A program made the position numbers and the translations under genes. From positions 1 to 33,898 of the forward strand of contig CAYNTC010000001.1 of assembly GCA_964399795.1 (NCBI GenBank): a stretch of DNA of 33,898 bases, read 5' to 3'. Each line of letters starts with the position of its first letter. Positions within the stretch are counted from its first letter, which is position 1. This DNA comes from an uncultured Pirellulales bacterium (GTDB lineage Bacteria > Planctomycetota > Phycisphaerae > Sedimentisphaerales > Anaerobacaceae). Positions 21,649 through 33,898 of the stretch are shown piece after piece. Below the pieces are notes generated by a model. It did not search any database. It had not been told where the DNA came from and worked only from the letters and a program-made list of their open reading frames with translations.

Positions 21649-21677
21649 TTGTCAAATCAGCAGAGAAATGCTATACT
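21649..21677 (+). promoter_or_regulatory. Sigma70-like promoter with extended -10, upstream of the nucleotidyltransferase-PLP fusion gene
   Basis: TTGTCA (21649..21654), a 17-nt spacer ending in TGc, then TATACT (21672..21677). This would give a ~345-nt leader to ATG 22029. Confidence 0.35.
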
Positions 21678-22028
21678 TCGCGGAAAACCCCGATAAGATA
21701 GACAGGATTTCATGGTCGGGCGAGCTATAATAAGAGGTTGCTGTAAGAGCAGGACCAAATGGTGAGCTGCGATGTGAAAAATATTAAATTGTAGAGTGTG
21801 GACGCGCTTAAACCCGGCCGTCTAAACTGCTGCGGATACGACCGGGTCGAAACCAGAGGAATAGACGAAGTTGCTGTAGATGGTGCTGTATTTGGACGTT
21901 ATATAGGCATTTTCTGGATTATCCGGTTTGTTAGATGGCGGTAATTAGAACCATAAGACATAACAGCAGACGGTTAGAAGCAAGTATCCCGGCTTTTATT
22001 GCAGCCGCAGTGTACAAGAGACGATAAT

Positions 22029-23900
22029 ATGCAAGCAGTGATCTTGGCAGCAGGCAGAGGAAACAGACTACGGCCAATCACCGACGAGAAACCCAAATGT
22101 CTTGTCGAAGTAAATGGAATCCCTTTGCTTATCAACGCTCTGGAAGCGTTAACGAAACGACCGGAAATAAAAGAGGTAATAATTGTCATCGGATATAAGG
22201 GAGAATTGATAGAACAGAGAGTCGGCCGAAAATACAATGAGACGGATGTAACTTATGTCACCAATAAAGACTGGAACACGACAAACAATATTTACTCATT
22301 GTGGCTGGCGATGGACAAAATCAAAGAGGACTTTTTACTGTTGGAAGGAGATATCTTTTTCGAGCATAGTATCTTGGACTTTGCATTTAGGACGAGAGAC
22401 AAGAATATAGTGTTCCTGTCGAAGTACCACTCGAGCATGTCGGGAACGGTAGTTGAGATTGGAGAGAGGGGCAGCAAGATAGCCTCCGGTACCTTGGTTG
22501 AAGCAGAGGACAGGGGCACGGCGATAAAAAGGTTGATTTCAGGCAGTGAACAGGGCCTGGATTTCGACTACTCTGACAAATTTAAGACCGTAAACATTTA
22601 CTACCTCAACTACGATTTCTTCGAGAAATACTTTCGGCCAAATCTGGACCTCTATATCAAAACACATGGCTCCGGCAGCTATTATGAGTTAATTCTCGGC
22701 TTACTCATTTATTTAAACACGCCTGACATTTATGGCTGCGTTGTGGATAACAAGAAATGGTATGAAATCGACACCGAGAACGACTTGGATATGGCCGATT
22801 ATCTATTTTCCAAAGGGGAAAAGGCGGATAAGCTTGCGAATTTGTACGGTGGTTATTGGCGATTCGATTTTCTGGACTTCTGTTTCTTGTTCAATCTTTA
22901 CTTCCCGCCTCAACATCTATATTCAAAACTGGGGTACGAATTGCCGCTGCTGATTAACAATTATCCCTCTGCTCAAAGCAGAATAGCCAGCCTTCTGTCG
23001 CAGTGGTACGCCGAAGAAGGTTTTGACAAGGAAAACATACTTGTGGGGAACGGAGCTTCAGAATTCATTAGAATCTTTAATAGGCATTTTGTGAAGACCG
23101 TAACCATACCGGTTCCCACTTTCAACGAATACGAAGACCTTGACCCTTCACAAGTCAACCTTGTCCAACTGCGGGAAGACAATGGATTTTCCCTGAATGC
23201 GGATGAGTTTATCAGTTCCGTTATTGAGTCAAACAGCAACTTCGCGGTTTTACTCAATCCAAACAACCCAACTTCGACGGTGACAGAAAGGGAGGATATT
23301 GTAAAAATATTAGAGAATCTGAAGCATTTAGACGGGGTTGTTGTTGACGAGTCATTCATAGATTTCACTGGGGACAGGGGACGATATTCGGTCCAGCCCT
23401 TAATAACCCGGTATTCAAACTTAATCGTATTAAGAAGCCTCAGTAAGGAATTCGGTATTCCAGGACTAAGGCTGGGATACGTTCTCTCTTCGAATGAGGA
23501 ATTTAGAAAGAAAGTGCGGAAATATCTGCCAATATGGAATATTAACTCGATTGCGGAACGGTTCATAGAACTATTTCCGAGGTACCAGAAGGAGTATGAA
23601 CAATCTATAAGACGGATAATGGACGACAGAGAAAACTTTTATCGCCAGCTAAGTGACACGGAAATATTGGAGCCCACCGACAGCAAGGCCAACTTTATTT
23701 TCTGTAAAGTGGTAAGCGACGGTATCGACAGTACAGAGCTAAGAAACAGACTTTTCACGGCTCATAATATTTTAATAAAGGATTGCTCTAATAAAACATC
23801 ACTGGGGAATAAATTCGTAAGAATAGCAGTACGAAGACAGGAAGAAAATAACTTGCTGGTCGAAGCATTGAGGCAAATCAAGCACGATATAGGTGGATGA
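22029..23900 (+). CDS. Bifunctional fusion: LicC-like (phospho-alcohol) nucleotidyltransferase plus CobD/HisC-like class I/II PLP enzyme (probable phospho-amino-acid decarboxylase)
   Basis: N-terminal domain: MQAVILAAGRGNRLRPITDEKPKCLV, NNIYSLWLA, LLEGDIFF, WYEIDTENDL. C-terminal domain: ILVGNGASE, LLNPNNPTS, VVVDESFIDF, VLRSLSKEFGIPGLRLGY (PLP Lys), VRIAVRRQEENNLLVEAL. The start is re-set from the track's TTG 21999 to ATG 22029, so that the Gly-rich loop sits at the N-terminus. Confidence 0.85.
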   Translation: MQAVILAAGRGNRLRPITDEKPKCLVEVNGIPLLINALEALTKRPEIKEVIIVIGYKGELIEQRVGRKYNETDVTYVTNKDWNTTNNIYSLWLAMDKIKEDFLLLEGDIFFEHSILDFAFRTRDKNIVFLSKYHSSMSGTVVEIGERGSKIASGTLVEAEDRGTAIKRLISGSEQGLDFDYSDKFKTVNIYYLNYDFFEKYFRPNLDLYIKTHGSGSYYELILGLLIYLNTPDIYGCVVDNKKWYEIDTENDLDMADYLFSKGEKADKLANLYGGYWRFDFLDFCFLFNLYFPPQHLYSKLGYELPLLINNYPSAQSRIASLLSQWYAEEGFDKENILVGNGASEFIRIFNRHFVKTVTIPVPTFNEYEDLDPSQVNLVQLREDNGFSLNADEFISSVIESNSNFAVLLNPNNPTSTVTEREDIVKILENLKHLDGVVVDESFIDFTGDRGRYSVQPLITRYSNLIVLRSLSKEFGIPGLRLGYVLSSNEEFRKKVRKYLPIWNINSIAERFIELFPRYQKEYEQSIRRIMDDRENFYRQLSDTEILEPTDSKANFIFCKVVSDGIDSTELRNRLFTAHNILIKDCSNKTSLGNKFVRIAVRRQEENNLLVEALRQIKHDIGG

Positions 23901-23901
23901 C

Positions 23902-25155
23902 ATGAAAAAAGAAAACCTTATATTAGTGACGATGGATGCTGTTAGGCCGGACAGGCTCAGTTGCTACGGATATGGAAAGATAAAAACGAAAGGTATTGAC
24001 TCTATAGCTGCTGAAGGGGTGCTTTTCAAGAACGGTATTGCCACCTCTTGTTTAACGCCGGTCGCCTGTGCTTCCATACTTTCCGGCAAATGCCCTGATA
24101 AAACTAAACTCAGAGACCCTTTTGGCGTGGTCGAAACGACGATAATCTCAGAGATGCTCAACCAGTATGGATATAAGACGGCGGGGTTCGTCGGTGTAGA
24201 CTTAATAGATTCGCGGCACCATTTCCACAAAGGTTTTGATTTATTCGATGAGCCCACTGAGGCAGACAGTTTTCACACAATGTGGTTCAGGGGGGACAAA
24301 AAAGAGCTTAAGGCCACGTTGGGGAGCTGGTGGATTGACAGAATGTTCAAATGGCTAAAAGATAACGCCAATGAAAATTTCTTCATCTGGTGCCACTATT
24401 TCCATGTGCACTTTCTGGCGGAGAAGGAACTACTCTACTCGGGAAAACTCAATAGTGACGAGTTGTCTGATTATGCGTATTATGACGCTAAAGTAAAGTA
24501 CATGGACGAACAGTTGTTTCAGCCTCTGGTTGATACTCTGAAAGATTTGGACATTTGGCATAATACCACCGTGGTGGTTACAAGCGACCACGGAGAAACT
24601 TTGGGGACGAAACAGCCTACCTGGAAAACTTTTTACATCGAATACCCGCAACATAAGACGATGTACGAGGCTGACTTAAAGGTGCCGCTGATAATCAAGA
24701 ATAGCAATTTGCAGAGCATGAAGATAGACCATACTGTCAGATCCATAGACATAGTGCCAACTCTTGTTGACTTACTGGATATTCCGACCGCTGAGACATT
24801 TGATGGCATAACTTTAACACCGCTGTTCAAAGGACAGAAATTGCCGGAACCGATCGCTTACTGTGAAGAATTATTTGAGAACAGAGGTGCCGGTTCCCTA
24901 CAAGCTGTTCGAACAGTATGCTATAAGTTGATACGTAACCTTACGAGAAACAAGCTGGAATTCTACAACTTGCAGAAGGATGCTGAAGAAAAACAGAATA
25001 TTATAGAAACATGTTCCCCAAAGGAAAAAGAAACCGCTCAGCAATTCGAGAAAATCATGGACAAGCTTCTTGCCGGTTATGTGGCTGGTTCAGTTCTTAG
25101 CAAGGAAGATAAAAAGCAAGTGGAAGAAAGGCTGCGCTCTCTGGGTTATATATAA
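23902..25155 (+). CDS. Sulfatase-family (alkaline-phosphatase superfamily) enzyme, no signal peptide or TM, non-canonical nucleophile motif
   Basis: LVTMDAVRPDRLSCYGYGKIKTKGIDSIAAEGVLFKN is colinear with sulfatase N-termini (D..lgcYG...i.TPnlD.LAaeGv.F.n), and VVVTSDHGETLG is present. The ATG at 23902 is 2 nt after the stop of the fusion gene, with AGGTGG 5 nt upstream, which indicates translational coupling. The track's GTG at 23893 is less likely. Confidence 0.8.
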   Translation: MKKENLILVTMDAVRPDRLSCYGYGKIKTKGIDSIAAEGVLFKNGIATSCLTPVACASILSGKCPDKTKLRDPFGVVETTIISEMLNQYGYKTAGFVGVDLIDSRHHFHKGFDLFDEPTEADSFHTMWFRGDKKELKATLGSWWIDRMFKWLKDNANENFFIWCHYFHVHFLAEKELLYSGKLNSDELSDYAYYDAKVKYMDEQLFQPLVDTLKDLDIWHNTTVVVTSDHGETLGTKQPTWKTFYIEYPQHKTMYEADLKVPLIIKNSNLQSMKIDHTVRSIDIVPTLVDLLDIPTAETFDGITLTPLFKGQKLPEPIAYCEELFENRGAGSLQAVRTVCYKLIRNLTRNKLEFYNLQKDAEEKQNIIETCSPKEKETAQQFEKIMDKLLAGYVAGSVLSKEDKKQVEERLRSLGYI

Positions 25156-25276
25156 AACCCCCAACTTTTCTTGAGAACTCGTGTTCAAAACCGGAAACCG
25201 GGCATCTGTTTCTGGAGGACGAAAGCCGAACACGGGCGGATGTTTCTCGCAGCCCCATGTCAGCTAAGCATCTATT

Positions 25277-26278
25277 TTAGGCGGTGCTTTTTTTCTGTTT
25301 AGTCAGCCAATAAAGCTGACAGGCAGCCCCGACAAGGGCCATGAAGACCAACCTCGAGAACAAAATCATCGACATCAATAAGGCAGCCGATTTCTCAACC
25401 CCATATAAAGACAAAAGACTCACCAGCAAGGATTCTCTTATGCCAAGATTTGCAATCGACATGGGGACCCGTCCCAAAACATAAACCAAAGCAGCGAGCC
25501 AAACAAATACACCAATAGGCGCGACCAAGTTCGCTCCTTTGGCAGAAAGAACATACACAACGATGCCCATAACCGGTGTTGCGATTATCGTAATAACCGT
25601 CACGAGCAGGTGAAAGCTTGCGCCGGCTGTCTGGAATATCCCCACCTGTTCAAGAATCTCTTCACCTTTTTGACGCATTTTCGAGGGAAACGGTCGGATC
25701 AAGACCTTAAGTGCTGCAACTATCTTGCTGCCAATCTGCCTGTTCAGTAACAGAAAACAAGCAATGATTATTGCTGTCGCGACAGCTCCGCAGATAGCCG
25801 GCAAAAGCCAGCTTCTCTTTATTCCGGCTAAAGATGTCGGGTTACTAACCACCAACGCAACCAGGCCGAAAATACCCATAACGATGATTGTTAATAACTG
25901 GTTGTATACCAGTGCGCTGAAGACATTAGTCCCTTTACCAGTATCTTTTTTTAGAATGTACCATTTTACTCCGGTGCTAAGCAGGCCTGGCATAACCATA
26001 CTGTAAAGTGAAGTCACTGCACTTGCACAGAACACCGTACCGACGCTCACGATACAGTTCTGTCGCCTTAGAATGAATTGCATCTTGATTGAGCGTATCC
26101 AGAAACGGATTAGAGTCGTCACCCAGACCGCCAAAAGAAATTCCCATCTCGCGGTCTTGGCAGCTAGCCAAAATTCCTTAAAGTCTATTTGGCTAAAAAC
26201 CCAGAGCAGCAAACCAGAAGTGATTACTATCCTGAAAGCAAGCTTGATGATTTTCACGTTTTTATTCGAGGATTCCAC
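25277..26278 (-). CDS. Lysylphosphatidylglycerol-synthase-TM-like / 'flippase-like domain' (UPF0104) integral membrane protein
   Basis: About 8 TM segments. The N-terminus KIIKLAFRIVITSGLLLWVFSQIDFKEFWLAAKTARWEFLLA has the pattern I associate with the TIGR00374/UPF0104 family. GTG start with AGGA 7 nt upstream. It is the last gene of the minus-strand string. Confidence 0.7.
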   Translation of the reverse strand: MESSNKNVKIIKLAFRIVITSGLLLWVFSQIDFKEFWLAAKTARWEFLLAVWVTTLIRFWIRSIKMQFILRRQNCIVSVGTVFCASAVTSLYSMVMPGLLSTGVKWYILKKDTGKGTNVFSALVYNQLLTIIVMGIFGLVALVVSNPTSLAGIKRSWLLPAICGAVATAIIIACFLLLNRQIGSKIVAALKVLIRPFPSKMRQKGEEILEQVGIFQTAGASFHLLVTVITIIATPVMGIVVYVLSAKGANLVAPIGVFVWLAALVYVLGRVPMSIANLGIRESLLVSLLSLYGVEKSAALLMSMILFSRLVFMALVGAACQLYWLTKQKKSTA

Positions 26279-26318
26279 GGACGTATCCTATTAAATTCGA
26301 CGGGGTCTTTTCGTCTCT

Positions 26319-27542
26319 CTAGACGATACTCTTAACAAAATCCATTATTCTTTGGCGAGCACAACTATCCTGATACTTGAAGCGCAGATTTTTGACAAAC
26401 AGTCTTTCTTTGGCAAAGTAATTCTTGTCATTGAGCAACTTAATAAGCTGCGTCTTGAAATCCTTGAAGCTGTTTACCTTTGGCCCGGGCGTTACACTAT
26501 CGTAGTCGAACAGAAATCCGGCCTCAGACTCGTATTTCTCCAAATCATATGGTATGAACATAAGTGGCTTATCCGTCAACAGGAAATCAAGAAATACAGT
26601 GGAGTAGTCGGTTATCAAAAGGCTGCACTTGTTAAACAGGGTGTTTACGTCAGTGAGTCTGTCATGATTAATGATTTGTACGTTCTTAAGGCGAGCAAAT
26701 TCGTCCGGTTTCCAATGCCTGTTGTAGAGTTTTCTGGCTTTTGAAACTGTAGTTGCACGATGCCCCCTGAGTATGAACAACATATTGTTTTTTACAAGAA
26801 ATTCCTCCAGCTCAGACGAGTCAAAATCGTCAAAAGGGAAAAATCTTGGAGGCTCGCTGTGTCTAAAAGTCGGAGCATAAAGAACAACCGACTTGTAACT
26901 GTCAAAATCCGCAAGACTTTCCTCAAGAACATCCTGGTTTACGATGTCATTCCTTGGTATGCCGGTAACAATTACCCGCTCAACTGGCAAATTGAAGCTC
27001 TTGGAGAGCAGGAACTTCTCAACTGTCGAAGAGGCCAGCAGATAGCTAACTTTCTTCTTGTGGAAAAATCTGGCAAGAGAAAACGCCAAATGACGCCTTG
27101 TCTTGCGGCACTGGCCAACTCTCTTCCAGTGCAGTCCGTGCCAAAGATTAATAATGAGATGTCTTTTCGTTAAAAAGTAGTAGACATCAGTTATATGGTC
27201 GGATACAAAAACAACCTTCGCCCTTAATATCGTCCAGCACCCTTGTAATGACTTCGCATATATCACATTCTCCGGGAATCTACGTTTCAATTCTAAATAT
27301 AATTGCTTGTTCGCGGTCACCCAGTAGTGTTTAATCTGAGGCTCATTTTTAAGAGCATACTCAAACATAAAACGGCTGTTTTCTCCGTATAGGTCACCTG
27401 CAAACGCGCCATATAGGAAGATGTTTTTTTTCTTTGGTACAAGCCAGTCCAGAAGAAGCAAAGGTACTAACCTCGCAAACTCTGTCCTGACAAGCCGCAG
27501 CAAAGCTTTTAATTCAACCTTCATGTTCAACTGTGCGGACAT
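26319..27542 (-). CDS. TagB/TagF-family CDP-alcohol (glycerol/ribitol-type) phosphotransferase
   Basis: PF04464-type signatures: NLWHGLHWK (catalytic His region), VTGIPRNDIV, VLYAPTFRH, LLITDYSTVFLDFLLTDKPLMFIPYDLEKY. Confidence 0.85.
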   Translation of the reverse strand: MSAQLNMKVELKALLRLVRTEFARLVPLLLLDWLVPKKKNIFLYGAFAGDLYGENSRFMFEYALKNEPQIKHYWVTANKQLYLELKRRFPENVIYAKSLQGCWTILRAKVVFVSDHITDVYYFLTKRHLIINLWHGLHWKRVGQCRKTRRHLAFSLARFFHKKKVSYLLASSTVEKFLLSKSFNLPVERVIVTGIPRNDIVNQDVLEESLADFDSYKSVVLYAPTFRHSEPPRFFPFDDFDSSELEEFLVKNNMLFILRGHRATTVSKARKLYNRHWKPDEFARLKNVQIINHDRLTDVNTLFNKCSLLITDYSTVFLDFLLTDKPLMFIPYDLEKYESEAGFLFDYDSVTPGPKVNSFKDFKTQLIKLLNDKNYFAKERLFVKNLRFKYQDSCARQRIMDFVKSIV

Positions 27543-27599
27543 AATCTACATCACTTAATCTTTCACCCAAAACCAAATGACCGCAAGTATCGGGCGTAT

Positions 27600-28853
27600 C
27601 TACTCTAGGCAAAGTAATCTTTTGAACAATCTTTCACATGATTTGCCGTCCTGAAATTTGTTGAATTTATTCTTAAACCGTTGGTAGTTCGCGGTGTATG
27701 CATCATCATGTGACCAAATGTCAACATTTTTCATCAAAGCCATCAATTCACTCGGCTTATAAGCAAACGGACCGGGCATTTCTCGGTCATAGTCTTCAAA
27801 CATTCCCTCAGGGGCTTTGTATACATCACGGTCGTACGGGAAAAAAATAATAGGATTGTTTGTAAGGGTGAAATCGAAAACCACGCTCGAGTAATCACTG
27901 ATTAGCACGTCGACACAGATTAACATTTCCTGTATGTCCTGGCTGCTCTCAGATACATCTATAATATTAGTGAACCCGCCAAGGCCTGTTATTTTATCGG
28001 CATAAGGATGCTGCTTTATCAGTAGAACATGGTTTTCTTTGATAAGCCACCTGTCAAGTTCGCTGAGAAATCTCTCGTCGAACGGATTTACCGTTTCACC
28101 AATCTTACGAAATGTAGGAGCGTACAAAAACACTTTCTTGTAGTTTGACAGCCTGAACCTGTTGGAAATGTCCTCACAGCTAAATAACTCCGGCCGGAAA
28201 AGAATGTCATTCCTTGGAGACCCAACCTCCAAAATCAGTGCATTGGTGAAAAGTTTCCTGAACACCTCGGTTGTATGATTGCATGATGACAACGCACAAA
28301 AGAATTTCTTCATCTCTATTCTTTTTATTCTCTTCCATAGTTCACGACGCCTGGAATGGACATTCTTGAAAGGTGTTGCGTGCCAACACTGGATTATCTT
28401 GAAACGGCCGATGAGAAACGACGCATTTGGATTAAGGAAGTTGTTGTTATCGACAAAGAGATATTTGGCCCTTAGCATATACCAGAACGCCCTCAGGCCT
28501 TTTGTCGGCTTTATTCCCAAACCTGCAATTTGGCCGAAGAGCTTTTTATTTGGTACATGAAAAATGCTGACAAAATCGTCAAGTCTCTTAGCCGCGTATA
28601 TCGCCAGGTACTTCGGGCACTCTTTAAATTGAAAGTCTATTTCGTTCATCCAAATGGGAAAGTTATAATTCCCTACAGAGCTGAAGAACAGTATTCTTTT
28701 ACTTTTGGGAACCACATAGCTGAGTGGAAAAAGCAAAAGTTTGAGCAAGGCGTTGCGAGCCAGGACAACGACGATCAGGAACAGGCCGATTGACCTGGCC
28801 ACTTTGTTTTTGCCCAGTAACTTGCTGTTTAAAATCGCATAGTTTTTAAGCAT
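27600..28853 (-). CDS. TagB/TagF-family CDP-alcohol phosphotransferase, second divergent paralogue
   Basis: IQCWHATPFK, EVGSPRNDILF, FLYAPTFRK, VLISDYSSVVFDFTLTNNPIIFFPYDRDVY, plus an N-terminal hydrophobic anchor SIGLFLIVVVLARNALLKLLLFPL. Confidence 0.85.
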   Translation of the reverse strand: MLKNYAILNSKLLGKNKVARSIGLFLIVVVLARNALLKLLLFPLSYVVPKSKRILFFSSVGNYNFPIWMNEIDFQFKECPKYLAIYAAKRLDDFVSIFHVPNKKLFGQIAGLGIKPTKGLRAFWYMLRAKYLFVDNNNFLNPNASFLIGRFKIIQCWHATPFKNVHSRRRELWKRIKRIEMKKFFCALSSCNHTTEVFRKLFTNALILEVGSPRNDILFRPELFSCEDISNRFRLSNYKKVFLYAPTFRKIGETVNPFDERFLSELDRWLIKENHVLLIKQHPYADKITGLGGFTNIIDVSESSQDIQEMLICVDVLISDYSSVVFDFTLTNNPIIFFPYDRDVYKAPEGMFEDYDREMPGPFAYKPSELMALMKNVDIWSHDDAYTANYQRFKNKFNKFQDGKSCERLFKRLLCLE

Positions 28854-28926
28854 AATAACCCGTCACACGCGACCTCATTGACTGCCTCGCTCTTACTTGG
28901 TAATCACTTCGGTCGAATTTCTGGTG

Positions 28927-30069
28927 TTAGCTGATTCTAATCCTATGCGAAGTCTGAAGAAGATTGGCATATAGCTCAAGGTATCGCTGCGTAATATTAG
29001 TCCAGCTATATTTCTGCACCCGTTCCAAGGCCTTTTCTGACAGACGACGTCGCAATTTTTCAGAAGCGACCAAGCTCTCAAGATTCTTTTCTATTCCGCT
29101 TACATCTCGTGGTTCAACCGTCAGCGCCGCATCACCTACCACCTCAGTGCAGCCCCCGGCGGTACTCGTGATTATCGCCGTTCCTGCGGCCATCGCTTCT
29201 AATAAAACCGTGGGGAAGTTTTCAGCTTCAGATGGAAAAATGAAAATGGCGCTTTTTTTGAACAATTCGTAAAACTGTGGGTCGGCTTTCCCAAGCCAGC
29301 CCCAGAATTTGACCGGGGTTTTCGAGCCCTCTGCAAGGCGTTTCAATTCAGCGAGATACGGTCCTTCGCCGACGACATTTACCTGCCAATCCAGTCTTAT
29401 ATTTCTTATAGCCTCGATAGCATACTGGAAGCCTTTTCGTCGCATGATTCGGCTGCACATAAGTATTTCGTTTTTTTTGACATCAGGTTTGTACGGCTCC
29501 GGATATATTCCGTTGGTCACCACCTCAAGGTTGGCTTTTTCGCAATGTTTCAAAATCAACTCCTTGAGCGATTCGCTCGGCGATGTCAGCAGCGGAGTTC
29601 GACGGACTAAAAAACGCCATGCGGGCAACAGCAATTTGTGTATCGTCTTGAAACGGTCAGGATTATACCCCGGTACATCTGTGCCGTGACAGGTGATCAA
29701 GAAAGGGGTACTTGTCAATTTGCTTATTATCCAGGCTAATAGACCGCCGGGGATAATAAAATGACAATGTACAATGTCATATTTTTTGCGGCGTGCCAGG
29801 TACAGCGTCTTTATAAGCGCCCCCGGGACATATGTTGCCAGTTCGTGAGTATGGCAGATATTCGGCCTTTTACGAAGCGCAGGTGTCCTGTAGATGTTGA
29901 CGCCCTCTACGGTCTCAAACCGCGGCAGGTTATCGTAGTGCATCGTTACCACATCGACGTGATGTCCCTTGCATACAAGGTGTCTGCTTAGTTCAAAGCT
30001 GACCGGTGCGGCGCCGCCTCCTACAGGTGGAAACTCATGATTAAGCATCAGTATCTTAAGTGTAGTCAC
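28927..30069 (-). CDS. GT4-family (GT-B, retaining) glycosyltransferase
   Basis: KILMLNHEFPPVGGGAA N-terminus and the EX7E region FIFPSEAENFPTVLLEAMAAGTAIITS. GTG start at 30069; an ATG alternative lies 7 codons in. Confidence 0.88.
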   Translation of the reverse strand: MTTLKILMLNHEFPPVGGGAAPVSFELSRHLVCKGHHVDVVTMHYDNLPRFETVEGVNIYRTPALRKRPNICHTHELATYVPGALIKTLYLARRKKYDIVHCHFIIPGGLLAWIISKLTSTPFLITCHGTDVPGYNPDRFKTIHKLLLPAWRFLVRRTPLLTSPSESLKELILKHCEKANLEVVTNGIYPEPYKPDVKKNEILMCSRIMRRKGFQYAIEAIRNIRLDWQVNVVGEGPYLAELKRLAEGSKTPVKFWGWLGKADPQFYELFKKSAIFIFPSEAENFPTVLLEAMAAGTAIITSTAGGCTEVVGDAALTVEPRDVSGIEKNLESLVASEKLRRRLSEKALERVQKYSWTNITQRYLELYANLLQTSHRIRIS

Positions 30070-30077
30070 AATTGTAG

Positions 30078-31976
30078 CTACCCTGAATCACTCAAGCTGG
30101 TTTTACGTTCAAACAACACATGCTCGCCGAACATCGAAACGATTCGATAATTCGTCATCACGAATTCCCTAAAGGGTTTCAGAACCCTGTAACGCTCAGC
30201 TTCATCCTCGCCAAAGTTATCCGCCAGCAACTTGGCCCATTCACGGTCGTACAAATTAATGGCCTCTTTATTTAGCGGCAGGAATGTTCTTTCCTTCAAG
30301 CCCATAAACCCCTTCGGCACTATTGGCCATAACTCATAGGGCGGCCTCTCCGTAGGGATGTGTCGCTTCCGCGAGTCAACGATGAACTTGGGCCTCTCAC
30401 TTTGGAACTCTGCCAGGAGCTGCTCGACTGTCTGGGCCAGCCGCGCTGGCGCAGGCCGGGGCATACAGAACGCCTTTGAAGCCGAACTGAACCGCTGGGC
30501 CTGGACATATATGCCCGGGTACCATCCCCAGACGTAAATTTTGTCGTTCGGTTCTGAATGGTTTCTGATATATTCACCTGCAACTTCCCAAGGACCTTTG
30601 AGGTTTCTTTGTCGTCGCAGTGAGATTTCCCGATACTTTTGAACATAACCGCGATTTCTACTGCCATAATTAACGCCTGAGTGCGGGCTTGTTTTTATCC
30701 CCGCAAATATATGCCAGGACATGATTAGCATGACCAGTAAAGCCCCGATTCCGGCTGCCGACCAGGTCCGTTTATTGCCACCGCTGAGTTTTCGCTGGTA
30801 TAATGTCACTATATACCCACCAAGCATTGCAGCAGATGCGTTTAGCGGCAGGTAGTATTGTTCATAGGAGCGCGGGCTAATCCACACGAAAGCCATATCC
30901 AGCAGCCACCATATCGCTAATAGCAATACGAACCGGTCGTATGAGACTGTCATAACCTTGCTGGCCTTGCGCCTTCGTAGTGCACCACGCACAATTCTTA
31001 CGACTATGGCGCAGACCGCCAGAGATATTGGTAATATAAGTTTGCTGTAGTATCGCAGGACGATGGGCCATTGCTCTGAAAAAGGCACAATTTTTCGGCT
31101 TCGACCAATATAGTCCGAGGCTGTTTTTGCCTGATCTATAGTGGATTTTGCCGGGACGAATTTCGCTAATGTTTGCCACACGAACATGTAAGGAAGATTC
31201 AATTGTACTTTCCAAGCCAGTATCCATATATAAAGTGGCGCAAGTGCCGCTATTGACCCTGCCAGCAGAAGCGCGATATCAAAGCCTGTTTGCCTGAAGG
31301 TCTTGTTCTTCAATACTGGTTGTAGCACGACAAATAGGCCCACTGCTCCGATAGCTGAAACTCCTGTTGGTTTAAAAAGCGGCGCCCAAATCAGAAACAC
31401 GCCGGCCAACATTGCCTGCCACCATTTGCTGTCGAGTTGGTACAAAATGAAACAGCTAATCCCTATCACCATGCAGGCGATCATATACTGTTCTTTGACG
31501 TTACCGAACTTAGCAATCAGCGGCGCAGAAAGATACACTGATGCAACGATGACCCCTACGGCAGCAGCTAATGCACCAAAGAGCCTTCGCATTGCCACGA
31601 ACATGAGCACTAACGCCGCTGCTTGAAGGATCATCTGGATTAACTTAGCCCCTGTTTCATTGAAACCAAATAGCCAAACACCCAACATGTTGACCAGTAG
31701 TGTTCCCAGCCGAGCACTTGGCTTTTCTTCAACGCCGATTTTTGCGCCAGATAGTATATGCGCAGAAGAGTAGACGTATGCGCCGCTATCGAATGGGCCG
31801 GGAGAGTTGAACTCAAAGTATTTACCAAGAGAAAAAGGAATGCCCGCCAGAATGACTATCACCACAAGAGCAAAAATGTGCATTTGCTTTCGGCTTTTAG
31901 GTCGAGTCGTGATATGAGTATCATGCGGTGCTGCCTTTTTGTGTGGAGGTTTCTTTTGTCGGCTGGGCTTGCTCAT
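30078..31976 (-). CDS. GT-C fold, ArnT/PMT (GT39/GT83)-like polyprenyl-phosphate-sugar-dependent glycosyltransferase with a C-terminal soluble domain
   Basis: About 11-13 TM segments. The first extracytoplasmic loop has FDSGAYVYSS (the Asp-containing motif position of GT-C enzymes). The C-terminal ~200-aa domain has IYVWGWYPGIYVQAQRFSSASK, typical of PMT_2-type proteins. Its start overlaps the upstream GT2 stop as ATGA. Confidence 0.75.
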   Translation of the reverse strand: MSKPSRQKKPPHKKAAPHDTHITTRPKSRKQMHIFALVVIVILAGIPFSLGKYFEFNSPGPFDSGAYVYSSAHILSGAKIGVEEKPSARLGTLLVNMLGVWLFGFNETGAKLIQMILQAAALVLMFVAMRRLFGALAAAVGVIVASVYLSAPLIAKFGNVKEQYMIACMVIGISCFILYQLDSKWWQAMLAGVFLIWAPLFKPTGVSAIGAVGLFVVLQPVLKNKTFRQTGFDIALLLAGSIAALAPLYIWILAWKVQLNLPYMFVWQTLAKFVPAKSTIDQAKTASDYIGRSRKIVPFSEQWPIVLRYYSKLILPISLAVCAIVVRIVRGALRRRKASKVMTVSYDRFVLLLAIWWLLDMAFVWISPRSYEQYYLPLNASAAMLGGYIVTLYQRKLSGGNKRTWSAAGIGALLVMLIMSWHIFAGIKTSPHSGVNYGSRNRGYVQKYREISLRRQRNLKGPWEVAGEYIRNHSEPNDKIYVWGWYPGIYVQAQRFSSASKAFCMPRPAPARLAQTVEQLLAEFQSERPKFIVDSRKRHIPTERPPYELWPIVPKGFMGLKERTFLPLNKEAINLYDREWAKLLADNFGEDEAERYRVLKPFREFVMTNYRIVSMFGEHVLFERKTSLSDSG

Positions 31977-32971
31977 CCCTTATCCCCACGATCCTTAATC
32001 GATTCGAGTATTTCCTTTATCACATACGTAGGGCGGTTCTGTGACTCATGGTATGTTCGCACTAAAAGCTCCGCAAGCAATCCCATTAGTACGAACTGAA
32101 TTGTAGCCGTGATCAACAGCGCAGTCAGGACTAATAGTGGATTCCTGTTCATAGACAGATGCGAAGGAGAGATAAACTTTTGATAGAGTACTACAAGGCC
32201 CGATGTCACAGCCACAAGTGCACTTGCTGCTCCTAAACCGCCAAAGATGTAGATCGGCTTAGTTGAAAACGAACCTAAGAATTTGACCGTGATAAGGTCT
32301 AGTATTACCTTGAGTGTCCGTCCCAGACCGTATTTTGGCGCGCCCGAGGTTCTGTGTCTGTGGTTTACCTCGATCTCAACGATCCTGGCACCGCTCCAGC
32401 TTGCCAGCGCTGGTATGAAGCGGTGCATTTCACCGTACAATTTCGTCTCGGCTAAGACCTCTCGACGATATGCTTTGAGCGTGCAACCAAAGTCATGCAG
32501 CCGGACACCTGTAATTCTGGCAATCAGCCAATTGGCGATTTTAGATGGTACAATCCTTGTTATGAGTTTGTCGTGTCGATTTTTTCGCCAGCCACTAACA
32601 ACATCGAATCCCTCATTAAGTTTAGTGAGCATCTTAGGTATATCTGCCGGGTCGTTCTGCAGATCAGCGTCGATCGCAACGATGATTTCGCCCCGCGCGT
32701 GCTCGAAGCCGGCACTAAGTGCGGCTGTTTGGCCAAAGTTCTTACGGAAGCGGATTATCCGGATTCTTGCATCCTTCTTTTGCAACTGGCTCAGTATCTC
32801 GAAACTATTGTCTGTGCAACCATCGTCAACGAATACTATTTCGTAATCATATTTATCGGCCAGGGTTTGTGTGATCTGCTCATGGAGTGGACCGAGATTG
32901 TCCTGCTCATTCAGAACCGGTACCACTACGGAAACCTCACAATGCGTATGCTTAGTATCTTTTTTGGCCAT
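31973..32971 (-). CDS. GT2 polyprenyl-phosphate glycosyltransferase (GtrB/ArnC/DPM1-like)
   Basis: VSVVVPVLNEQDNL, VFVDDGCTDNS, AIDADLQNDP, and two C-terminal TMs with PIYIFGGLG and LMGLLAELLVRTYHESQNRPTYVI, the hallmark of this family. The start is re-set from the track's GTG 32992 to ATG 32971 (MAKKD), which has GGAG 6 nt upstream. Confidence 0.88.
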   Translation of the reverse strand: MAKKDTKHTHCEVSVVVPVLNEQDNLGPLHEQITQTLADKYDYEIVFVDDGCTDNSFEILSQLQKKDARIRIIRFRKNFGQTAALSAGFEHARGEIIVAIDADLQNDPADIPKMLTKLNEGFDVVSGWRKNRHDKLITRIVPSKIANWLIARITGVRLHDFGCTLKAYRREVLAETKLYGEMHRFIPALASWSGARIVEIEVNHRHRTSGAPKYGLGRTLKVILDLITVKFLGSFSTKPIYIFGGLGAASALVAVTSGLVVLYQKFISPSHLSMNRNPLLVLTALLITATIQFVLMGLLAELLVRTYHESQNRPTYVIKEILESIKDRGDKG

Positions 32972-33003
32972 ACTTTGCTCCGTATGTATCACTTTGTCGC
33001 ACT

Positions 33004-33032
33004 ATACTAATGCCTGCGTTGGCATTTTGCAA
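33004..33032 (-). promoter_or_regulatory. Sigma70-like promoter for the minus-strand glycopolymer operon
   Basis: On the minus strand: TTGCAA (33032..33027), a 17-nt spacer, then TAGTAT (33009..33004). The predicted TSS near 32997 gives a ~26-nt leader containing the GGAG ahead of ATG 32971. Confidence 0.4.
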
Positions 33033-33235
33033 TAACGCCGGTCACCTTCCCCTAATAGAATATCGGCTGTAATACCAGGCTATGTAAGTCAAAAATGTCA
33101 GAAGGCATGTGTAAGACTGCTAATTGTTGAGTATAATGTGGCTATAGTCATTTTCAGTAACATGTGGGCTTGATTACAAAGTTAGAAGGGAAATTTCCGT
33201 AGTGGGTTAAAAGAAGAAACGAAAGGGCAATAAGC

Positions 33236-33895
33236 ATGTTATATGACGTCTTTTATTTGATTGGCATTGTAGGCATTGTCATATTGGCATTTATCATTGG
33301 CAAGAGGTTCTCCGCTACAAGCAAAACCCAGTCTAAGGCAACCACATTCATGCTCAAATCCATCCAGGCAATTGCTGAGCTGGCCGTCCTGGAGTATATC
33401 ACCGAAGGTGTCGCAGAAATAAAAGAAAAAAAGACCAGCTTAATTACGGTTCGTTGGAAGAGAGGCCTTTTAAGATACACTGCCAAACTCAAGGTTGGCT
33501 TTGATCTGGACCGGCTGGATTATGCGGTTGATGATGTCCAGAAGGTAATTCGGATTGCACTGCCCAGCCCGAGAATATTGAGCTGTGAAATTTACAATAG
33601 AAAGTTCTACAAGCTGCCTCTGGAAAAGGCTGAGAACGTACCTTGGAAAGTTGACATAATCCAGGACTTCAGCTCGGATGAGGTTCTTGCTCTTGATGAT
33701 GAAGCCAGAGAAAGCGCTCTGCAAAATGTCAAAGAGTTCTACGTATTGGACTTGCTCCAGGACAAAACTAGGCTGGCCTTTAAGAAAATTTTTTCGCTAT
33801 CCTATCCTGACTATAGCACAGATATATCAATCACAGGCCAAACCCAGGAGCAGCCGGCTGGTCAACTTCCCGAGCAAACAGCCTCAGAAAGTTGA
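33236..33895 (+). CDS. N-terminally membrane-anchored hypothetical protein, possibly DUF4230 family
   Basis: Single TM (VFYLIGIVGIVILAFIIG) followed by IQAIAELAVLEYITEGV ... LRYTAKLKVGFDL. This resembles the DUF4230 pattern as I remember it. A TATAAT at 33132..33137 is a possible -10. The stop codon is complete at 33893..33895. Confidence 0.5.
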   Translation: MLYDVFYLIGIVGIVILAFIIGKRFSATSKTQSKATTFMLKSIQAIAELAVLEYITEGVAEIKEKKTSLITVRWKRGLLRYTAKLKVGFDLDRLDYAVDDVQKVIRIALPSPRILSCEIYNRKFYKLPLEKAENVPWKVDIIQDFSSDEVLALDDEARESALQNVKEFYVLDLLQDKTRLAFKKIFSLSYPDYSTDISITGQTQEQPAGQLPEQTASES

Positions 33896-33898
33896 GCT

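Follow-up and report, generated by a model that had tools for sequence, protein, structure and literature searches.

A rare TagF-bearing version of a planctomycete surface-sugar locus built on a conserved GT2/GT-C pair

A string of six genes in a salt-marsh planctomycete of the Phycisphaerae/Sedimentisphaerales type is a rare TagF-bearing version of a surface-sugar locus that is common to many Phycisphaerae-type planctomycetes. The first two genes, for a GT2 polyprenyl-phosphate glycosyltransferase and a GT-C fold membrane glycosyltransferase, are a fixed pair across Planctomycetota genomes, and the GT4 and TagF-family genes lie in a cassette that varies between species. Rather than a classical teichoic acid, the locus most likely makes a short glycan that is decorated with phosphate and carried on a lipid. 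We tentatively read the string as an envelope-glycan locus in which a short phospho-alcohol-decorated lipid-linked glycan would be flipped and then transferred by the GT-C enzyme.

Results

The window, the whole stretch of DNA analyzed, comprises 33,898 nt (contig CAYNTC010000001.1, GCA_964399795.1, positions 1 to 33,898), and the string occupies positions 25277 to 32971. Its six minus-strand genes encode the GT2, the GT-C, a GT4, two TagF-family proteins, and a PF03706 flippase-like protein. The open reading frames (ORFs) lie at 25277–26278, 26319–27542, 27600–28853, 28927–30069, 30078–31976, and 31973–32971/32992, separated in ascending coordinates by 40, 57, 73, and 8 nt; the last two overlap by 4 nt, ATGA in a direct reading of the sequence. 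A further 121 nt (25155 to 25277) separate the string from a convergent plus-strand unit. This layout is as given in the original prediction, whose gene identities also proved right on Pfam, NCBIfam, motif, and alignment evidence. Every junction was reproduced by independent contigs from other samples; contig L004 is 99.99% identical across 17600–31302, and L006 spans 25670–33898 and further. The independent contigs show only housekeeping genes on either side, with DUF4230, cobO, and a true ispD in the ∼2.4 kb past the window. Neither the Pfam-scanned window ORFs nor this ∼2.4 kb contained TagO/WecA/WbaP, TagD/TarIJ, TagGH, or Wzx/Wzy, the canonical wall teichoic acid, capsule, and O-antigen partners predicted to be missing, and no exporter for long polymers was found in either region. 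Genes for CDP-glycerol synthesis are absent from the window. The host, as a planctomycete, is diderm, as had been loosely suggested.

The first gene of the string (31973–32971, minus strand) encodes an ArnC/GtrB/PgfS-like GT2, which matches Glycos_transf_2 (PF00535, E 5.6e-34), carries a DAD motif, and has two C-terminal hydrophobic transmembrane (TM) helices (249–271 and 284–312). Its start at 32971 matches the public gene call (332 aa), and its nearest NCBIfam models are ArnC-type (4.6e-64) and PgfS (4e-51), both under their equivalog cut-offs. The GT-C gene (30078–31976, minus strand), the start of which overlaps the GT2 stop, encodes ∼12 TM helices and a C-terminal extracytoplasmic domain of ∼200 aa, and its product matches PMT_2 (PF13231, 3e-8, 34.4 bits versus a cut-off of 26.1). 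The best Foldseek match of its AF2 model (pLDDT 77.6) was STT3/AglB (E 1e-8), followed by ArnT (1.5e-7), Pmt4, DPY19, and PglB. That en-bloc oligosaccharyltransferases are among the best matches, alongside ArnT, counts in favor of the explanation preferred below. However, the matches to the monosaccharide-transferring ArnT, Pmt, and DPY19 enzymes are almost equal to those to the oligosaccharyltransferases, the Pfam family is PMT_2 rather than STT3, and the motif YVWGWYPG is not the oligosaccharyltransferase motif WWDYG, all of which weigh against it.

GT-C homologs of 50 to 79% identity are present in 262 Planctomycetota species genomes. Gene order was compared across 80 species genomes, with counts taken over assessable loci (72 for the pair, 62 for the GT4, 46 for the PF03706 protein), and this comparison changed the reading of the string to one of a fixed pair and a variable cassette. 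A GT2 (63 to 96% identity) adjoins the GT-C gene on its upstream side in 72 of 72 loci. The genes downstream form a cassette that differs between species and encodes tailoring enzymes of the cytoplasm: GT4s, methyltransferases, amidotransferases, and pyruvyl transferases. A tally of 89 ORFs in the cassettes of 21 species gave 29 GT4s, ∼26 methyltransferases, 8 AsnB-like amidotransferases, 3 pyruvyl transferases, and 3 GT2s; Wzx, Wzy, ABC exporters, and initiating phosphoglycosyl transferases were absent from the 25 commonest cassette families of these species. Since these families include no initiating phosphoglycosyl transferase, the GT2 is the sole carrier-charging enzyme of the locus and the GT-C its sole extracytoplasmic transferase. 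Conservation of both around a variable middle is the pattern expected if the pair handles an invariant reducing end, and it favors the GT2 as initiator and the GT-C as final transferase of the whole glycan.

The cassette begins, 8 nt past the GT-C gene, with the gene for a cytoplasmic GT4 of the GT-B fold (28927–30069, minus strand; PF00534, 4.7e-31; PF13439, 9e-24), for which the NCBIfam search gave no equivalog. A GT4-type gene is found downstream of the GT-C gene in 59 of 62 loci, and orthologs of the window type (at least 45% identity) in 9 of the 62; the other loci carry a different GT4 (25 to 30% identity). In several loci with mapped start codons the first cassette gene starts only ∼4 to 85 nt past the end of the GT-C ORF, which suggests that the GT-C and GT4-type genes are co-transcribed. 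A conserved pair beside a variable cassette could also simply mark a recombination hot spot, a point that counts against the explanation favored below.

Of the two TagF-family phosphotransferases, B (27600–28853, minus strand; 417 aa; Glyphos_transf, PF04464, 1.5e-62) has a hydrophobic N-terminal anchor and the motifs WHA/GSPRND/YAPTFR/DYS, and aligns with TagF (PDB 3l7i, 1.9e-27). Its paralog A (26319–27542, minus strand; 407 aa; PF04464, 1.4e-57), 27% identical to B, has the motifs WHG/GIPRND/YAPTFR/DYS and matches TarL in the PDB (4.5e-19). Both thus carry the predicted motif set (WHG/WHA, G.PRND, YAPTFR, DYS), and both retain the two catalytic histidines, aligned to the TagF/TarL positions. 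Roughly 25 relatives share more than 44% identity with TagF B, and each comes from a metagenome or from Planctomycetota. A GT4 gene immediately precedes its ortholog in L010 and L013/14, and a PD40-like gene and a second GT4 intervene in L011/12; in L010, cytidylyltransferase-like and glycerol-1-P-dehydrogenase-like genes follow. Among the 80 genome loci TagF A has a single ortholog (L078, 67% identity), and TagF genes occur in this locus type in 1 of the 80 genomes. With the GT2/GT-C pair fixed and the GT4 and TagF genes in a variable cassette, the string is not a single evolutionary unit.

The last gene (25277–26278, minus strand) encodes a polytopic membrane protein of the MprF flippase-domain/UPF0104/AglD C-terminal type, with hydrophobic segments and a match covering the full LPG_synthase_TM model (PF03706, 8.1e-28). 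PF03706 proteins are predicted flippases, which in archaea lie beside AglD-like GT2 and PMT/STT3-like enzymes (PMC5898192). Homologs (33 to 56% identity) end the cassette in 19 of the 46 loci with at least 8 kb downstream, and a convergent glyA comes after the homolog in 8 of the 19.

The convergent unit on the plus strand begins with a gene (22029–23900) for a fusion protein that joins a LicC-like nucleotidyl(cytidylyl)transferase to a CobD-type PLP enzyme of the phospho-amino-acid decarboxylase fold (Pfam NTP_transferase and Aminotran_1_2; PDB 6oux, 4.4e-40; LicC 1jyk, 3.5e-14; best NCBIfam model CobD, 188.8 bits, under cut-off). The 623-aa protein (counted from 22029) has an invariant lysine, K473, in the segment expected to contain the PLP lysine (SLSKEFG). 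The fusion is a portable donor module, and elsewhere its gene adjoins genes for LicD (7 loci), TagF-like proteins, and CDP-alcohol phosphatidyltransferases (CDP-OH_P_transf, PF01066). Because these neighbors all use CDP-alcohols, its product is probably a CDP-aminoalcohol, and the data are consistent with the proposal that it may supply a donor. The second gene of the module (23902–25155, plus strand), 1 nt from the fusion, encodes a cytoplasmic alkaline-phosphatase-superfamily (AP-like) protein matching the sulfatase Pfam family (PF00884, 6.5e-37). In alignments to 9fo1 and 3ed4, a threonine replaces the formylglycine Cys/Ser (T-P-V-A-C versus sulfatase C/S-x-P-x-R); orthologs in L178 (71% identity) and L017 (48%), also adjacent to a fusion gene, have the same threonine. 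No signal peptide was found in these three proteins, in contrast to the canonical sulfatases of neighboring loci, which have one. A second AP-superfamily gene has left a relic of its 5′ end just upstream of the fusion (21777–21893, plus strand), 39 codons long and interrupted by an in-frame stop; a tblastn search of 21390–22030 with the AP-like protein gave 44% identity, 79% positives, and E 3e-10.

Discussion

In the explanation we tentatively prefer, the GT2 would charge polyprenyl phosphate with a sugar, giving polyprenyl-P-sugar, the GT4 would extend the chain, and TagF B and TagF A would add polyol-phosphate or aminoalcohol-phosphate from CDP-activated donors. The donor of TagF B is plausibly CDP-glycerol, and one of the TagF enzymes may use the fusion-made CDP-aminoalcohol, most simply CDP-ethanolamine from phosphoserine. 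The PF03706 protein would then flip the short phosphate-decorated lipid-linked glycan, and the GT-C, translationally coupled to the GT2 and acting at the outer face of the cytoplasmic membrane, would pass it to an envelope acceptor (protein, LPS, or peptidoglycan). Carrier, order of steps, donors, en-bloc transfer, chain length, and acceptor are all proposals of this scheme. It is supported by the genes that follow the TagF B ortholog in L010, and its short glycan by the lack of a long-polymer exporter. A long poly(alditol-phosphate) chain is unlikely, because the only candidate is of the lipid-flippase type and an ABC exporter is absent. Several observations weigh against the scheme: a fusion gene was not found near the TagF A ortholog in L078, the window lacks a CDP-glycerol synthesis gene, and the donor module of a related single-cell genome is found, together with a Wzx-like gene, on a separate contig (L178 versus L043). 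To our knowledge, it is in archaea rather than bacteria that polyprenyl monophosphate is an established carrier for oligosaccharide assembly. Also against the scheme, no more than 19 of 46 loci have a PF03706 gene at a distance of up to 10 kb, and bacterial PF03706 proteins have so far been tied to glycerolipid head-group pathways (gpgSDF; PMC12713373).

In a somewhat unlikely alternative, the original hybrid model taken as a glycolipid or polymer pathway, the GT4 and TagF enzymes build a phospho-alcohol glycolipid or oligomer on another anchor (diacylglycerol or phosphatidylglycerol, compare GpgS/HexS, or Und-PP, its initiator then being encoded elsewhere), this lipid is flipped by the PF03706 protein, and the GT2/GT-C pair adds single sugars outside from polyprenyl-P-sugar, like CsbB/YfhO and GacI/GacL on teichoic acids and rhamnan. 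All characterized bacterial GT2/GT-C pairs that we know of transfer monosaccharides, in keeping with the PMT_2 and ArnT matches of the GT-C. Phospholipids with modified head groups are moved by the flippase domain of MprF. PF03706 proteins pair with glycerolipid-glycosylating GT4 enzymes in gpgSDF and hexSDF (PMC12713373). The window GT4 weakly matches glycolipid-anchor and GlcNAc-PG synthases (2e-10 and 7e-9), but far under cut-off (35 to 40 versus 460 to 480 bits). Moreover, the GT4, here the first lipid-acting enzyme, is variable, the GT-C is highly conserved although its acceptor would differ between species, and two lipids would have to be flipped with one flippase candidate. Cytoplasmic, flippase, and extracytoplasmic steps in one envelope-glycan pathway fit the data, with the pair favored as initiator and final transferase over a role in adding extra sugars only.

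An unlikely alternative makes the pair a housekeeping Arn- or Pmt-like modification system (lipid A/LPS core or proteins) with no functional tie to its neighbors, and the cassette a separate glycan island at a recombination hot spot, its TagF and GT4 enzymes making a teichoic-acid-like capsule or exopolysaccharide with initiator and exporter elsewhere. Consistent with this, the GT2 is nearest ArnC and the GT-C resembles ArnT, the gene content of the cassette changes from one species to the next, as in O-antigen loci that lie between conserved genes, cassette and donor genes have a lower G+C content (0.42 to 0.46) than the GT2/GT-C genes (0.48 to 0.49), and in L178 and L179 a Wzx-like gene accompanies the donor module. 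However, the pair and cassette share a strand and, where starts were mapped, lie only ∼4 to 85 nt apart; no exporter or initiator is among the commonest families of the 21 sampled cassettes, and a glycan island without its own export and initiation genes across dozens of species would be unusual.

It is improbable that the TagF enzymes rely solely on CDP-glycerol or CDP-ribitol produced elsewhere while the AP-like enzyme moves aminoalcohol-phosphate from the CDP donor via a covalent threonine intermediate, in the manner of EptA and LtaS, which use lipid donors. In favor of this reading, the AP-like gene is the fusion's tightest partner, its threonine takes the nucleophile position as in phosphoryl-transferring superfamily members, the TagF-like genes beside the fusion are non-orthologous between loci (∼25% identity), and the L078 ortholog of TagF A lacks the fusion. 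Against it, all three AP-like loci also have a TagF-like gene, most fusion loci have LicD, TagF, or PF01066 genes instead of an AP-like gene, and we know of no cytoplasmic AP-superfamily transferase with a CDP donor.

Such a locus in a diderm is less atypical than first stated. TagF-family enzymes are already known in diderms from group 2 capsules, and glycosyl-alditol-phosphate capsules of Gram-negatives, which also lend support to the separate-island alternative, are polymerized by pairs of a glycosyltransferase and a TagF-like enzyme (PMC5974469).

Gene Order and Integrity of the Locus

Six long ORFs occupy the minus strand at 25277-32971 in an ORF scan of the window. Pfam assigns them, in gene order, to a GT2 glycosyltransferase (Glycos_transf_2, PF00535, 5.6e-34), a GT-C protein (PMT_2, 34.4 bits vs. 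a cut-off of 26.1), a GT4 glycosyltransferase (GT4 domains, 5e-31), two TagF-type proteins (PF04464 Glyphos_transf, 1.5e-62 and 1.4e-57) and a PF03706 protein (LPG_synthase_TM, 8e-28). In order of increasing coordinate, the gaps in the string are 40, 57, 73 and 8 nt, and direct inspection of the sequence revealed that GT2 ends and GT-C begins within one overlapping 4-nt ATGA; a further 121 nt separates the string from a convergent gene pair on the plus strand. The order, strand and spacing described in the original prediction, including the ATGA overlap, were all reproduced.

An exact-protein look-up located independent contigs from other samples. One (L004) is 99.99% identical across 17600-31302, from rseP into the GT-C gene, and a second (L006) spans 25670-33898 and extends past the window end. 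Because these contigs together span the region, every junction is reproduced and an assembly chimera is ruled out. Comparison with L006, and also with contigs L001-L003, L007 and L008, showed 128 differences clustered in ~1.4 kb at 31500-32900, with identity over 26.0-31.5 kb. GT2 and, at its 5′ end, the GT-C gene fall within the divergent tract, their proteins retaining 94% and 97% identity, respectively; the pattern resembles that of recombination, or of alleles of the GT2–GT-C pair that co-exist. The DNA runs that hold the window sequence are salt-marsh metagenomes, no RNA run was found to hold it, and promoter and terminator scans gave the same counts as shuffled sequence.

The canonical partners of TagF-type enzymes, which the original prediction had reported missing, were found neither among the Pfam-scanned window ORFs nor in the flanks (TagO/WecA/WbaP, TagD/TarIJ, TagGH, Wzx and Wzy), and the ~2.4 kb of flank beyond 33.9 kb, where it had been suggested that initiating and export genes might lie, contains none. 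Over the same ORFs and flank the canonical wall teichoic acid (WTA) set of TagO/WecA, TagA, TagD/TarIJ, TagGH and an LCP ligase was likewise not found. Instead, housekeeping genes lie on both sides: glyA, rseP and dxr upstream, on the other side of the string, and, past 33.9 kb, genes for a DUF4230 protein, CobO and a 246-aa cytidylyltransferase. An ordinary WTA locus was rejected on the lack of TagO, TagD, TagGH and LCP, the planctomycete host and the housekeeping genes on both sides. The cytidylyltransferase was considered as TarI, a source of CDP-ribitol, and was also rejected, as it scores above the cut-off of the IspD model (202.5 vs. 181.3) but below that of the model for ribitol-5-P cytidylyltransferase (130 vs. 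166).

Three genes outside the string have unusual features. At 9529-10361 (minus strand), a frameshift may have broken a PAP2 phosphatase gene in two: the ORFs at 9529-9915 and 9894-10361 overlap in different reading frames, and the downstream one covers just the C-terminal portion of the PAP2 model (positions 45-121). The gene at 13803-15635 (plus strand) joins an amino-acid permease to a PTS EIIA-2 domain at its C terminus, an unusual and regulatory-looking arrangement. The RseP/site-2 protease encoded at 17716-19908 (plus strand) is unusually long (730 aa), with several PDZ-type domains interrupting M50, and this long form is also found in related planctomycete loci.

A Fixed GT2–GT-C Pair Followed by a Variable Cassette

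Proteins annotated as ArnT family or GT39 in MAGs of Sedimentisphaerales, Phycisphaerales and Planctomycetota share 50-79% identity with the GT-C protein, and when one genome per GTDB species was scanned, 262 genomes contained a homologue. The 80 such genomes retrieved are all Planctomycetota MAGs or SAGs, labeled Sedimentisphaerales, Phycisphaerae, Phycisphaerales or, generically, "uncultured Pirellulales". Close relatives of the first TagF protein of the string (TagF B) are metagenomic, and the named ones are from Planctomycetota. The planctomycete envelope is of the Gram-negative type. As the relatives of both proteins are from Planctomycetota, the host is therefore diderm, which the original prediction had raised tentatively.

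The ORFs of all 80 loci were searched with the window proteins. In all 72 loci that could be assessed, GT2 (63-96% identity) lies directly upstream of GT-C. Downstream, 59 of 62 loci carry a GT4-type gene, with the GT4 type of the window itself (≥45% identity) present in 9/62, and a PF03706 homologue (33-56% identity) is located within 10 kb downstream in 19 of 46; in eight of those 19 the PF03706 gene is directly followed by a convergent glyA, frequently with rseP and dxr after it. The first cassette gene (that is, the first gene downstream of GT-C) starts ~4-85 nt past the end of the GT-C ORF in the loci with mapped start codons (8 nt in the window). By contrast, a search for TagF genes by BLAST and an HMM built from 114 TagF homologues found one in only 1 of the 80 loci (L078), an orthologue of the second TagF protein (TagF A; 67%). 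Orthologues of TagF B (48-53% identity) are confined to a few metagenome contigs, where they again follow GT2, GT-C and GT4.

A Pfam census of the 89 ORFs between GT-C and PF03706 in 21 species counted 29 GT4s, ~26 SAM methyltransferases, eight AsnB-like amidotransferases, three pyruvyl transferases and three GT2s; Wzx, Wzy, an ABC exporter and an initiating phosphoglycosyl transferase do not occur among its 25 commonest families. Thus, in the gene-order comparison the six-gene string of the original prediction does not behave as one evolutionary unit. The string is a fixed GT2–GT-C pair, followed by a species-variable cassette of cytoplasmic tailoring genes with a frequent PF03706 terminus, and the TagF content of the window is a rare variant of this locus. 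The evidence for this anatomy and distribution is solid. The cassette and the neighboring plus-strand donor genes have a G+C content of 0.42-0.46 vs. 0.48-0.49 for GT2 and GT-C, which fits turnover by horizontal exchange.

Two other observations were made in the homologous loci. Other cassettes hold AP-superfamily proteins (L023, 16061-18732, and L072, 13967-14998; weak "Sulfatase" matches and a type I phosphodiesterase), so phosphate chemistry may occur in this locus type without TagF. In two loci with TagF B, genes for DUF1573/HYDIN-like Ig-domain proteins lie a short way upstream of GT2, divergently adjacent in L010 (3876-5428) and one gene further off in L013 (1674-2795); these proteins may be secreted or surface exposed and are possible candidate acceptors.

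The GT2, GT-C and PF03706 Proteins

The GT2 protein has a DAD motif (within AIDADLQND) and hydrophobic segments at residues 249-271 and 284-312, toward the C terminus. It fits the GtrB/ArnC-type class, in which a GT-A domain with a DXD motif is joined to C-terminal TM helices, and its nearest NCBIfam models are ArnC (4.6e-64; 216 bits vs. a cut-off of 529) and then PgfS (4e-51).

The GT-C protein contains ~12 hydrophobic segments followed by a soluble domain of ~200 aa. An AlphaFold (AF2) model built on 28 homologues (pLDDT 77.6) gave 28 PDB matches at E ≤ 1e-3, all of them GT-C enzymes. The best were the oligosaccharyltransferase (OST) catalytic subunits STT3 and AglB (E ∼1e-8, TM 0.46-0.54), with ArnT (1.5e-7) and then Pmt4, DPY19, PglB, ALG9 and Emb next, and the C-terminal domain weakly matched the C-terminal globular domain of AglB (E 0.02-0.06). 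The first loop of the family contains E55 and D63, both invariant, and an SYEQYY and a YVWGWYPG segment are invariant as well; YVWGWYPG is reminiscent of the OST motif WWDYG without being identical to WWD(Y/W)G, and no STT3 Pfam match was found in the protein. The multi-TM module, the acidic residues of the first outer loop and the structural likeness all fit the GT-C superfamily. Taken together, the family match and the predicted fold indicate that the protein is a GT-C enzyme and a member of Pfam PMT_2 rather than of the OST family. The modeled structure alone would be compatible with transfer of either one sugar or a whole glycan.

The PF03706 protein matches its family over model positions 3-300 of 302 (98.2 bits vs. 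33.4). It has multiple hydrophobic segments and no aminoacyl-PG synthase domain, and is a candidate flippase. Members of PF03706 are predicted flippases homologous to the MprF flippase domain (Makarova et al., PMC5898192). In archaea the family forms the C terminus of AglD and shares a conserved neighborhood with an AglD-like GT2 and a PMT/STT3-like enzyme (PMC5898192), the same trio that is found in the window. In bacteria, predicted PF03706 flippases accompany GT4s that glycosylate glycerolipids, as in gpgSDF of Pseudomonas aeruginosa and hexSDF of Clostridioides difficile (PMC12713373). Both precedents bear on the window protein, and they point toward different lipid substrates. A further literature search on PF03706 returned nothing relevant.

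Two TagF Paralogues Retain the Catalytic Histidines

TagF B (27600-28853, 417 aa) and TagF A (26319-27542, 407 aa) are only 27% identical to each other. Both are single-domain proteins that match PF04464 over its full length (one at 195.8 and the other at 212.1 bits, vs. a cut-off of 22.1), and their match to Cps3D is limited to the TagF-like domain of that enzyme. The WHG/WHA, G.PRND, YAPTFR and DYS motifs are present in both translations. In the alignment with Staphylococcus epidermidis TagF, the WHA of TagF B coincides with the WHG His of 3l7i (the deposited variant 3l7j reads Asn there), and its KQHP aligns with RMHY, which contains the second catalytic His; these histidines are H444 and H584 of the S. 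epidermidis enzyme. The WHG and RGH of TagF A fall in the same columns, via TarL and the pairwise alignment of TagF A and TagF B. Hence, both catalytic histidines, the loss of which would have overturned the original prediction, are kept in each protein by alignment. The nearest NCBIfam models are TarF and TarL, and the TarB/TarF/TarL equivalog level is far from reached (best 81.5 and 112.1 bits vs. cut-offs of 500-1000).

From gene context, the candidate donor for these enzymes is a CDP-activated alcohol: the gene of a putative CDP-alcohol-making fusion protein is adjacent, and a second locus has a suggestive gene pair. In that locus (L010), the gene after the TagF B orthologue encodes a cytidylyltransferase similar to inositol-1-P cytidylyltransferase (7.5e-22), and the best match of the next gene is the glycerol-1-phosphate dehydrogenase model (248.6 bits, below cut-off). 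These neighbors suggest CDP-glycerol as the donor for TagF B; cytidylyltransferase and glycerol-1-phosphate dehydrogenase genes of this type are not encoded in the window. Group 2 capsule systems combine a multi-domain polymerase (GT, TagF-like and TPR) with KpsMT/KpsDE/KpsSC export and priming genes; the two window proteins have one domain each, and the Pfam scan of the window ORFs revealed no ABC exporter and no Kps-type gene. Literature searches on planctomycete TagF found nothing relevant.

A Putative Donor Module Inserted Beside the String

The convergent plus-strand pair begins with a gene (22029-23900) for a 623-aa fusion protein that has a LicC-like nucleotidyltransferase domain, matching PDB 1jyk (LicC; 3.5e-14) and also 6pd1, of the Tde1415 type, and a PLP domain of the CobD type. 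The best PDB match of the PLP domain is 6oux (4.4e-40), a serine-phosphate decarboxylase, and its best NCBIfam models are CobD (TIGR01140; 188.8 vs. a cut-off of 290.55) and HisC (170.3 bits); K473 is an invariant Lys. Among relatives in this PLP family, Cj1436 decarboxylates serine-P to ethanolamine-P for a capsule, and its relative Cj1437 transaminates DHAP to serinol-P for the same purpose (PMC11800397).

Full-length fusions at 41-70% identity form >120 clusters of relatives from Planctomycetota, Cloacimonadota, Elusimicrobiota and CPR bacteria and from DPANN, Asgard and Thermoplasmata archaea; one relative (P0226) also bears a methyltransferase domain. Fusions occur in loci L015-L017, L098-L126, L141, L178 and L179, and gene neighbors were tallied over ∼30 loci. 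Most of the relatives that the fusion profile retrieved from metagenomes are distant, at 32-36% identity, and are fit for neighbor statistics and not for close synteny. The recurrent neighbors belong to three unrelated classes of CDP-alcohol-using phosphotransferases: LicD in seven loci, with an opine-dehydrogenase-like gene; TagF-like genes in L105, L108, L115, L126, L112, L017, L178 and the window; and PF01066 CDP-alcohol phosphatidyltransferases in L015, L016 and L099. The neighborhoods thus give good evidence, by context, for a CDP-activated aminoalcohol as the predicted product. Since the Pfam-scanned window ORFs include no threonine kinase and phosphoserine is a normal metabolite, the most economical guess would be CDP-ethanolamine, with CDP-aminopropanol and CDP-serinol as alternatives. 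Fusions beside PF01066 enzymes could feed a Kennedy-type phospholipid route. Literature searches on the fusion, and on CDP-ethanolamine with LicD or a decarboxylase, found no such cytidylyltransferase-decarboxylase fusion described. Sulfation genes (PAPS synthase or CysDN, APS kinase, PAP phosphatase and sulfotransferases) were observed beside close fusion homologues in four loci (L016, 8777-9838; L017, 10706-13462; L178, 1-3361; L179, 939-4524 and 10666-11703), with a sulfotransferase gene overlapping the fusion stop codon in L016 and L179; none were found among the scanned window ORFs.

The second gene of the pair (23902-25155, plus strand) starts 1 nt downstream of the fusion and belongs to the Pfam "Sulfatase" family. 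A true sulfatase was rejected, as the protein has Thr (LTPVAC, T-P-V-A-C) where the aligned sulfatases show the formylglycine motif C/S-x-P-x-R. It lacks a signal peptide, as do its orthologues in L178 (71%) and L017 (48%), which have the same Thr motif position; canonical CSPTR sulfatases in related loci are secreted, with a signal peptide. Among members of the alkaline phosphatase (AP) superfamily, a Thr nucleophile is associated with the transfer of phosphoryl and not sulfuryl groups, and this cytoplasmic AP-like protein may be a phosphodiesterase or phospho-alcohol transferase. The gene is a tight partner of the fusion, kept in L178 and L017.

Neither gene of the pair was found in the 80 GT-C loci. 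In some of these (for example, L069, L079 and L092) a convergent glyA lies within ∼25-60 nt of the end of the PF03706 ORF, and in the window 3.9 kb is inserted between the two. In the single-cell genome AM-311-F19 the module, consisting of fusion, AP-like, divergent TagF-like, Wzx-like and PAPS-synthesis genes, is on a different contig (L178) from the GT2–GT-C locus (L043). Its absence from the 80 loci, the 3.9-kb insertion and this separate location indicate that the donor module is portable and was recruited in the window. Just upstream of the fusion, 39 codons from the N-terminal end of a second AP-superfamily gene survive as a relic (21777-21893, plus strand). The relic contains an in-frame stop, is 44% identical to the intact gene, and is a trace of how the module was inserted or rearranged between the PF03706 gene and glyA. 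A search for repeats bordering the module found only short, chance-level matches.

A Proposed Route and Its Alternatives

From these data we infer, tentatively and at somewhat below even confidence, a route in five steps. GT2 would charge polyprenyl phosphate, GT4 would extend the glycan, TagF B and TagF A would add phospho-alcohols from CDP donors, the PF03706 protein would flip the product, and GT-C would transfer it to an envelope acceptor. We prefer this route because GT2 is the only enzyme of these loci able to start a lipid-linked glycan and GT-C the only one able to act outside the membrane, because the two are conserved and the genes between GT-C and the flippase gene vary, and because the cassettes never carry an initiator or exporter of their own. 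There is also precedent in the Arn pathway, in which a polyprenyl-P-sugar can be modified before flipping. With no ABC-type exporter and TagF proteins of TagB/TarF size, a short decorated glycan would be expected, and a long poly(alditol-phosphate) polymer appears less likely on the same grounds. An oligomer alternating GT4 and TagF B products is possible by analogy with TagF-like capsule polymerases (PMC5974469).

The hybrid model of the original prediction, with glycosylation added outside the membrane, gives these enzymes another division of labor: GT4 and the TagFs would decorate a glycerolipid or other anchor, the PF03706 protein would flip it, and GT2 and GT-C would add single sugars outside. 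It parallels LTA/WTA glycosylation and gpgSDF, but its supposed first enzyme, GT4, is the variable element and GT-C is conserved despite what would be a variable acceptor, and we regard it as unlikely, though the likeliest of the alternatives. The fixed pair and changing cassette could also be read as an Arn- or Pmt-like housekeeping system beside an unrelated hot-spot island, with initiator and exporter elsewhere; we consider this improbable. That the Thr-type AP-like enzyme, a possible phospho-alcohol transferase, would transfer the aminoalcohol-phosphate in place of a TagF enzyme seems very improbable.

Extending the five-step route, locus-bearing Phycisphaerae-type planctomycetes might possess an archaeal-type general surface glycosylation system, with GT2 starting on polyprenyl monophosphate, serotype-like tailoring by the cassette, MprF-type flipping and en-bloc transfer by an STT3/ArnT-like GT-C to envelope proteins or LPS; in this lineage, TagF and phosphoserine-derived CDP-ethanolamine (or CDP-serinol/aminopropanol) would yield a zwitterionic glycan. 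We offer this as a speculation that is doubtful as a whole. If the five-step route holds, the locus would be a bacterial counterpart of the archaeal polyprenyl-monophosphate glycosylation route, with TagF enzymes at work outside the teichoic-acid and capsule pathways. The zwitterionic reading would imply that phospho-aminoalcohols are added in the cytoplasm from CDP donors, in contrast to the EptA-type route, which is periplasmic and depends on phosphatidylethanolamine. Understanding of planctomycete envelopes is poor, and this locus, conserved in at least 262 species-level genomes, is a likely determinant of surface-glycan diversity. The fusion, widespread in bacteria and archaea, points toward a de novo CDP-aminoalcohol pathway from phospho-amino acids, with a bearing on zwitterionic glycans and possibly phospholipid synthesis.

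Comparison with Known Systems

TagF in diderm group 2 capsules, GT2/GT-C/flippase triads and the archaeal GT2, GT-C and PF03706 trio, as a prediction, are already known. In the literature searches and family libraries used, we did not find a conserved planctomycete locus with a variable cassette, TagF within such a locus without teichoic-acid or capsule partners, or the use, likely in the window, of a CDP-aminoalcohol from a fused cytidylyltransferase-decarboxylase.

The three-component polyprenyl-P-sugar systems GtrA/B/C, CsbB/GtcA/YfhO, ArnC/ArnEF/ArnT and GacI/K/L share with the locus a DXD GT2 with C-terminal TM helices that charges polyprenyl-P, an outside-acting GT-C, a dedicated flippase (here a candidate) and coupled GT2/GT-C genes. 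They differ in the flippase, which is GtrA, SMR or Wzx rather than PF03706/MprF type, and in lacking the two to eight cytoplasmic tailoring enzymes encoded between the GT-C and flippase genes (GT4, methyltransferases, amidotransferases and, in the window, TagF); the locus GT2 and GT-C are below every curated equivalog cut-off.

The WTA enzymes TagB, TagF, TarF and TarL and the group 2 capsule enzymes Cps3D and Bcs3 share PF04464, both histidines and the PRND/PTFR/DYS motifs with the window TagFs (PMC5974469). The window proteins are of the size of primase/oligomerase members (TagB, TarF), have a GT-B glycosyltransferase gene directly upstream of TagF B, as in glycosyl-alditol-phosphate polymerases, and, like the capsule enzymes, come from a diderm host. 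Unlike the WTA and capsule systems, however, they lack TagO/TagA/TagD/TagGH/LCP or KpsMT/KpsSC partners and are embedded in a GT2/GT-C locus with a likely unusual donor, a CDP-aminoalcohol; they are single-domain proteins, in contrast to the multi-domain polymerases, and score 78-112 bits vs. equivalog cut-offs of 500-1000.

The gpgSDF and hexSDF operons resemble the locus in pairing a cytoplasmic GT4 with a predicted PF03706/COG0392 flippase, and modify a membrane lipid head group (PMC12713373). Unlike the locus, they include a deacetylase and have no GT2, GT-C or TagF, and the window GT4 scores 34.9 bits against the GlcNAc-PG synthase model (cut-off 480). For the fusion, the nearest kin of its C-terminal and N-terminal domains are the CobD/SMUL_1544/Cj1436 decarboxylases and the LicC-type cytidylyltransferases, respectively, whereas the window protein would combine both activities, with Ser-P, Thr-P or DHAP (by transamination) as candidate substrates.

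In the Haloferax dolichyl-monophosphate Agl pathway, a GT2 begins the glycan on a polyprenyl monophosphate, soluble GTs and a methyltransferase modify it, and a GT-C carries out the transfer. The archaeal AglD-like GT2, PMT/STT3-like (arCOG00563) and PF03706 (arCOG00899) genes place the same three classes adjacent to one another as the locus does (PMC5898192); the planctomycete locus differs from this trio and from Agl in its bacterial host and in a GT-C that is without the WWDYG motif.
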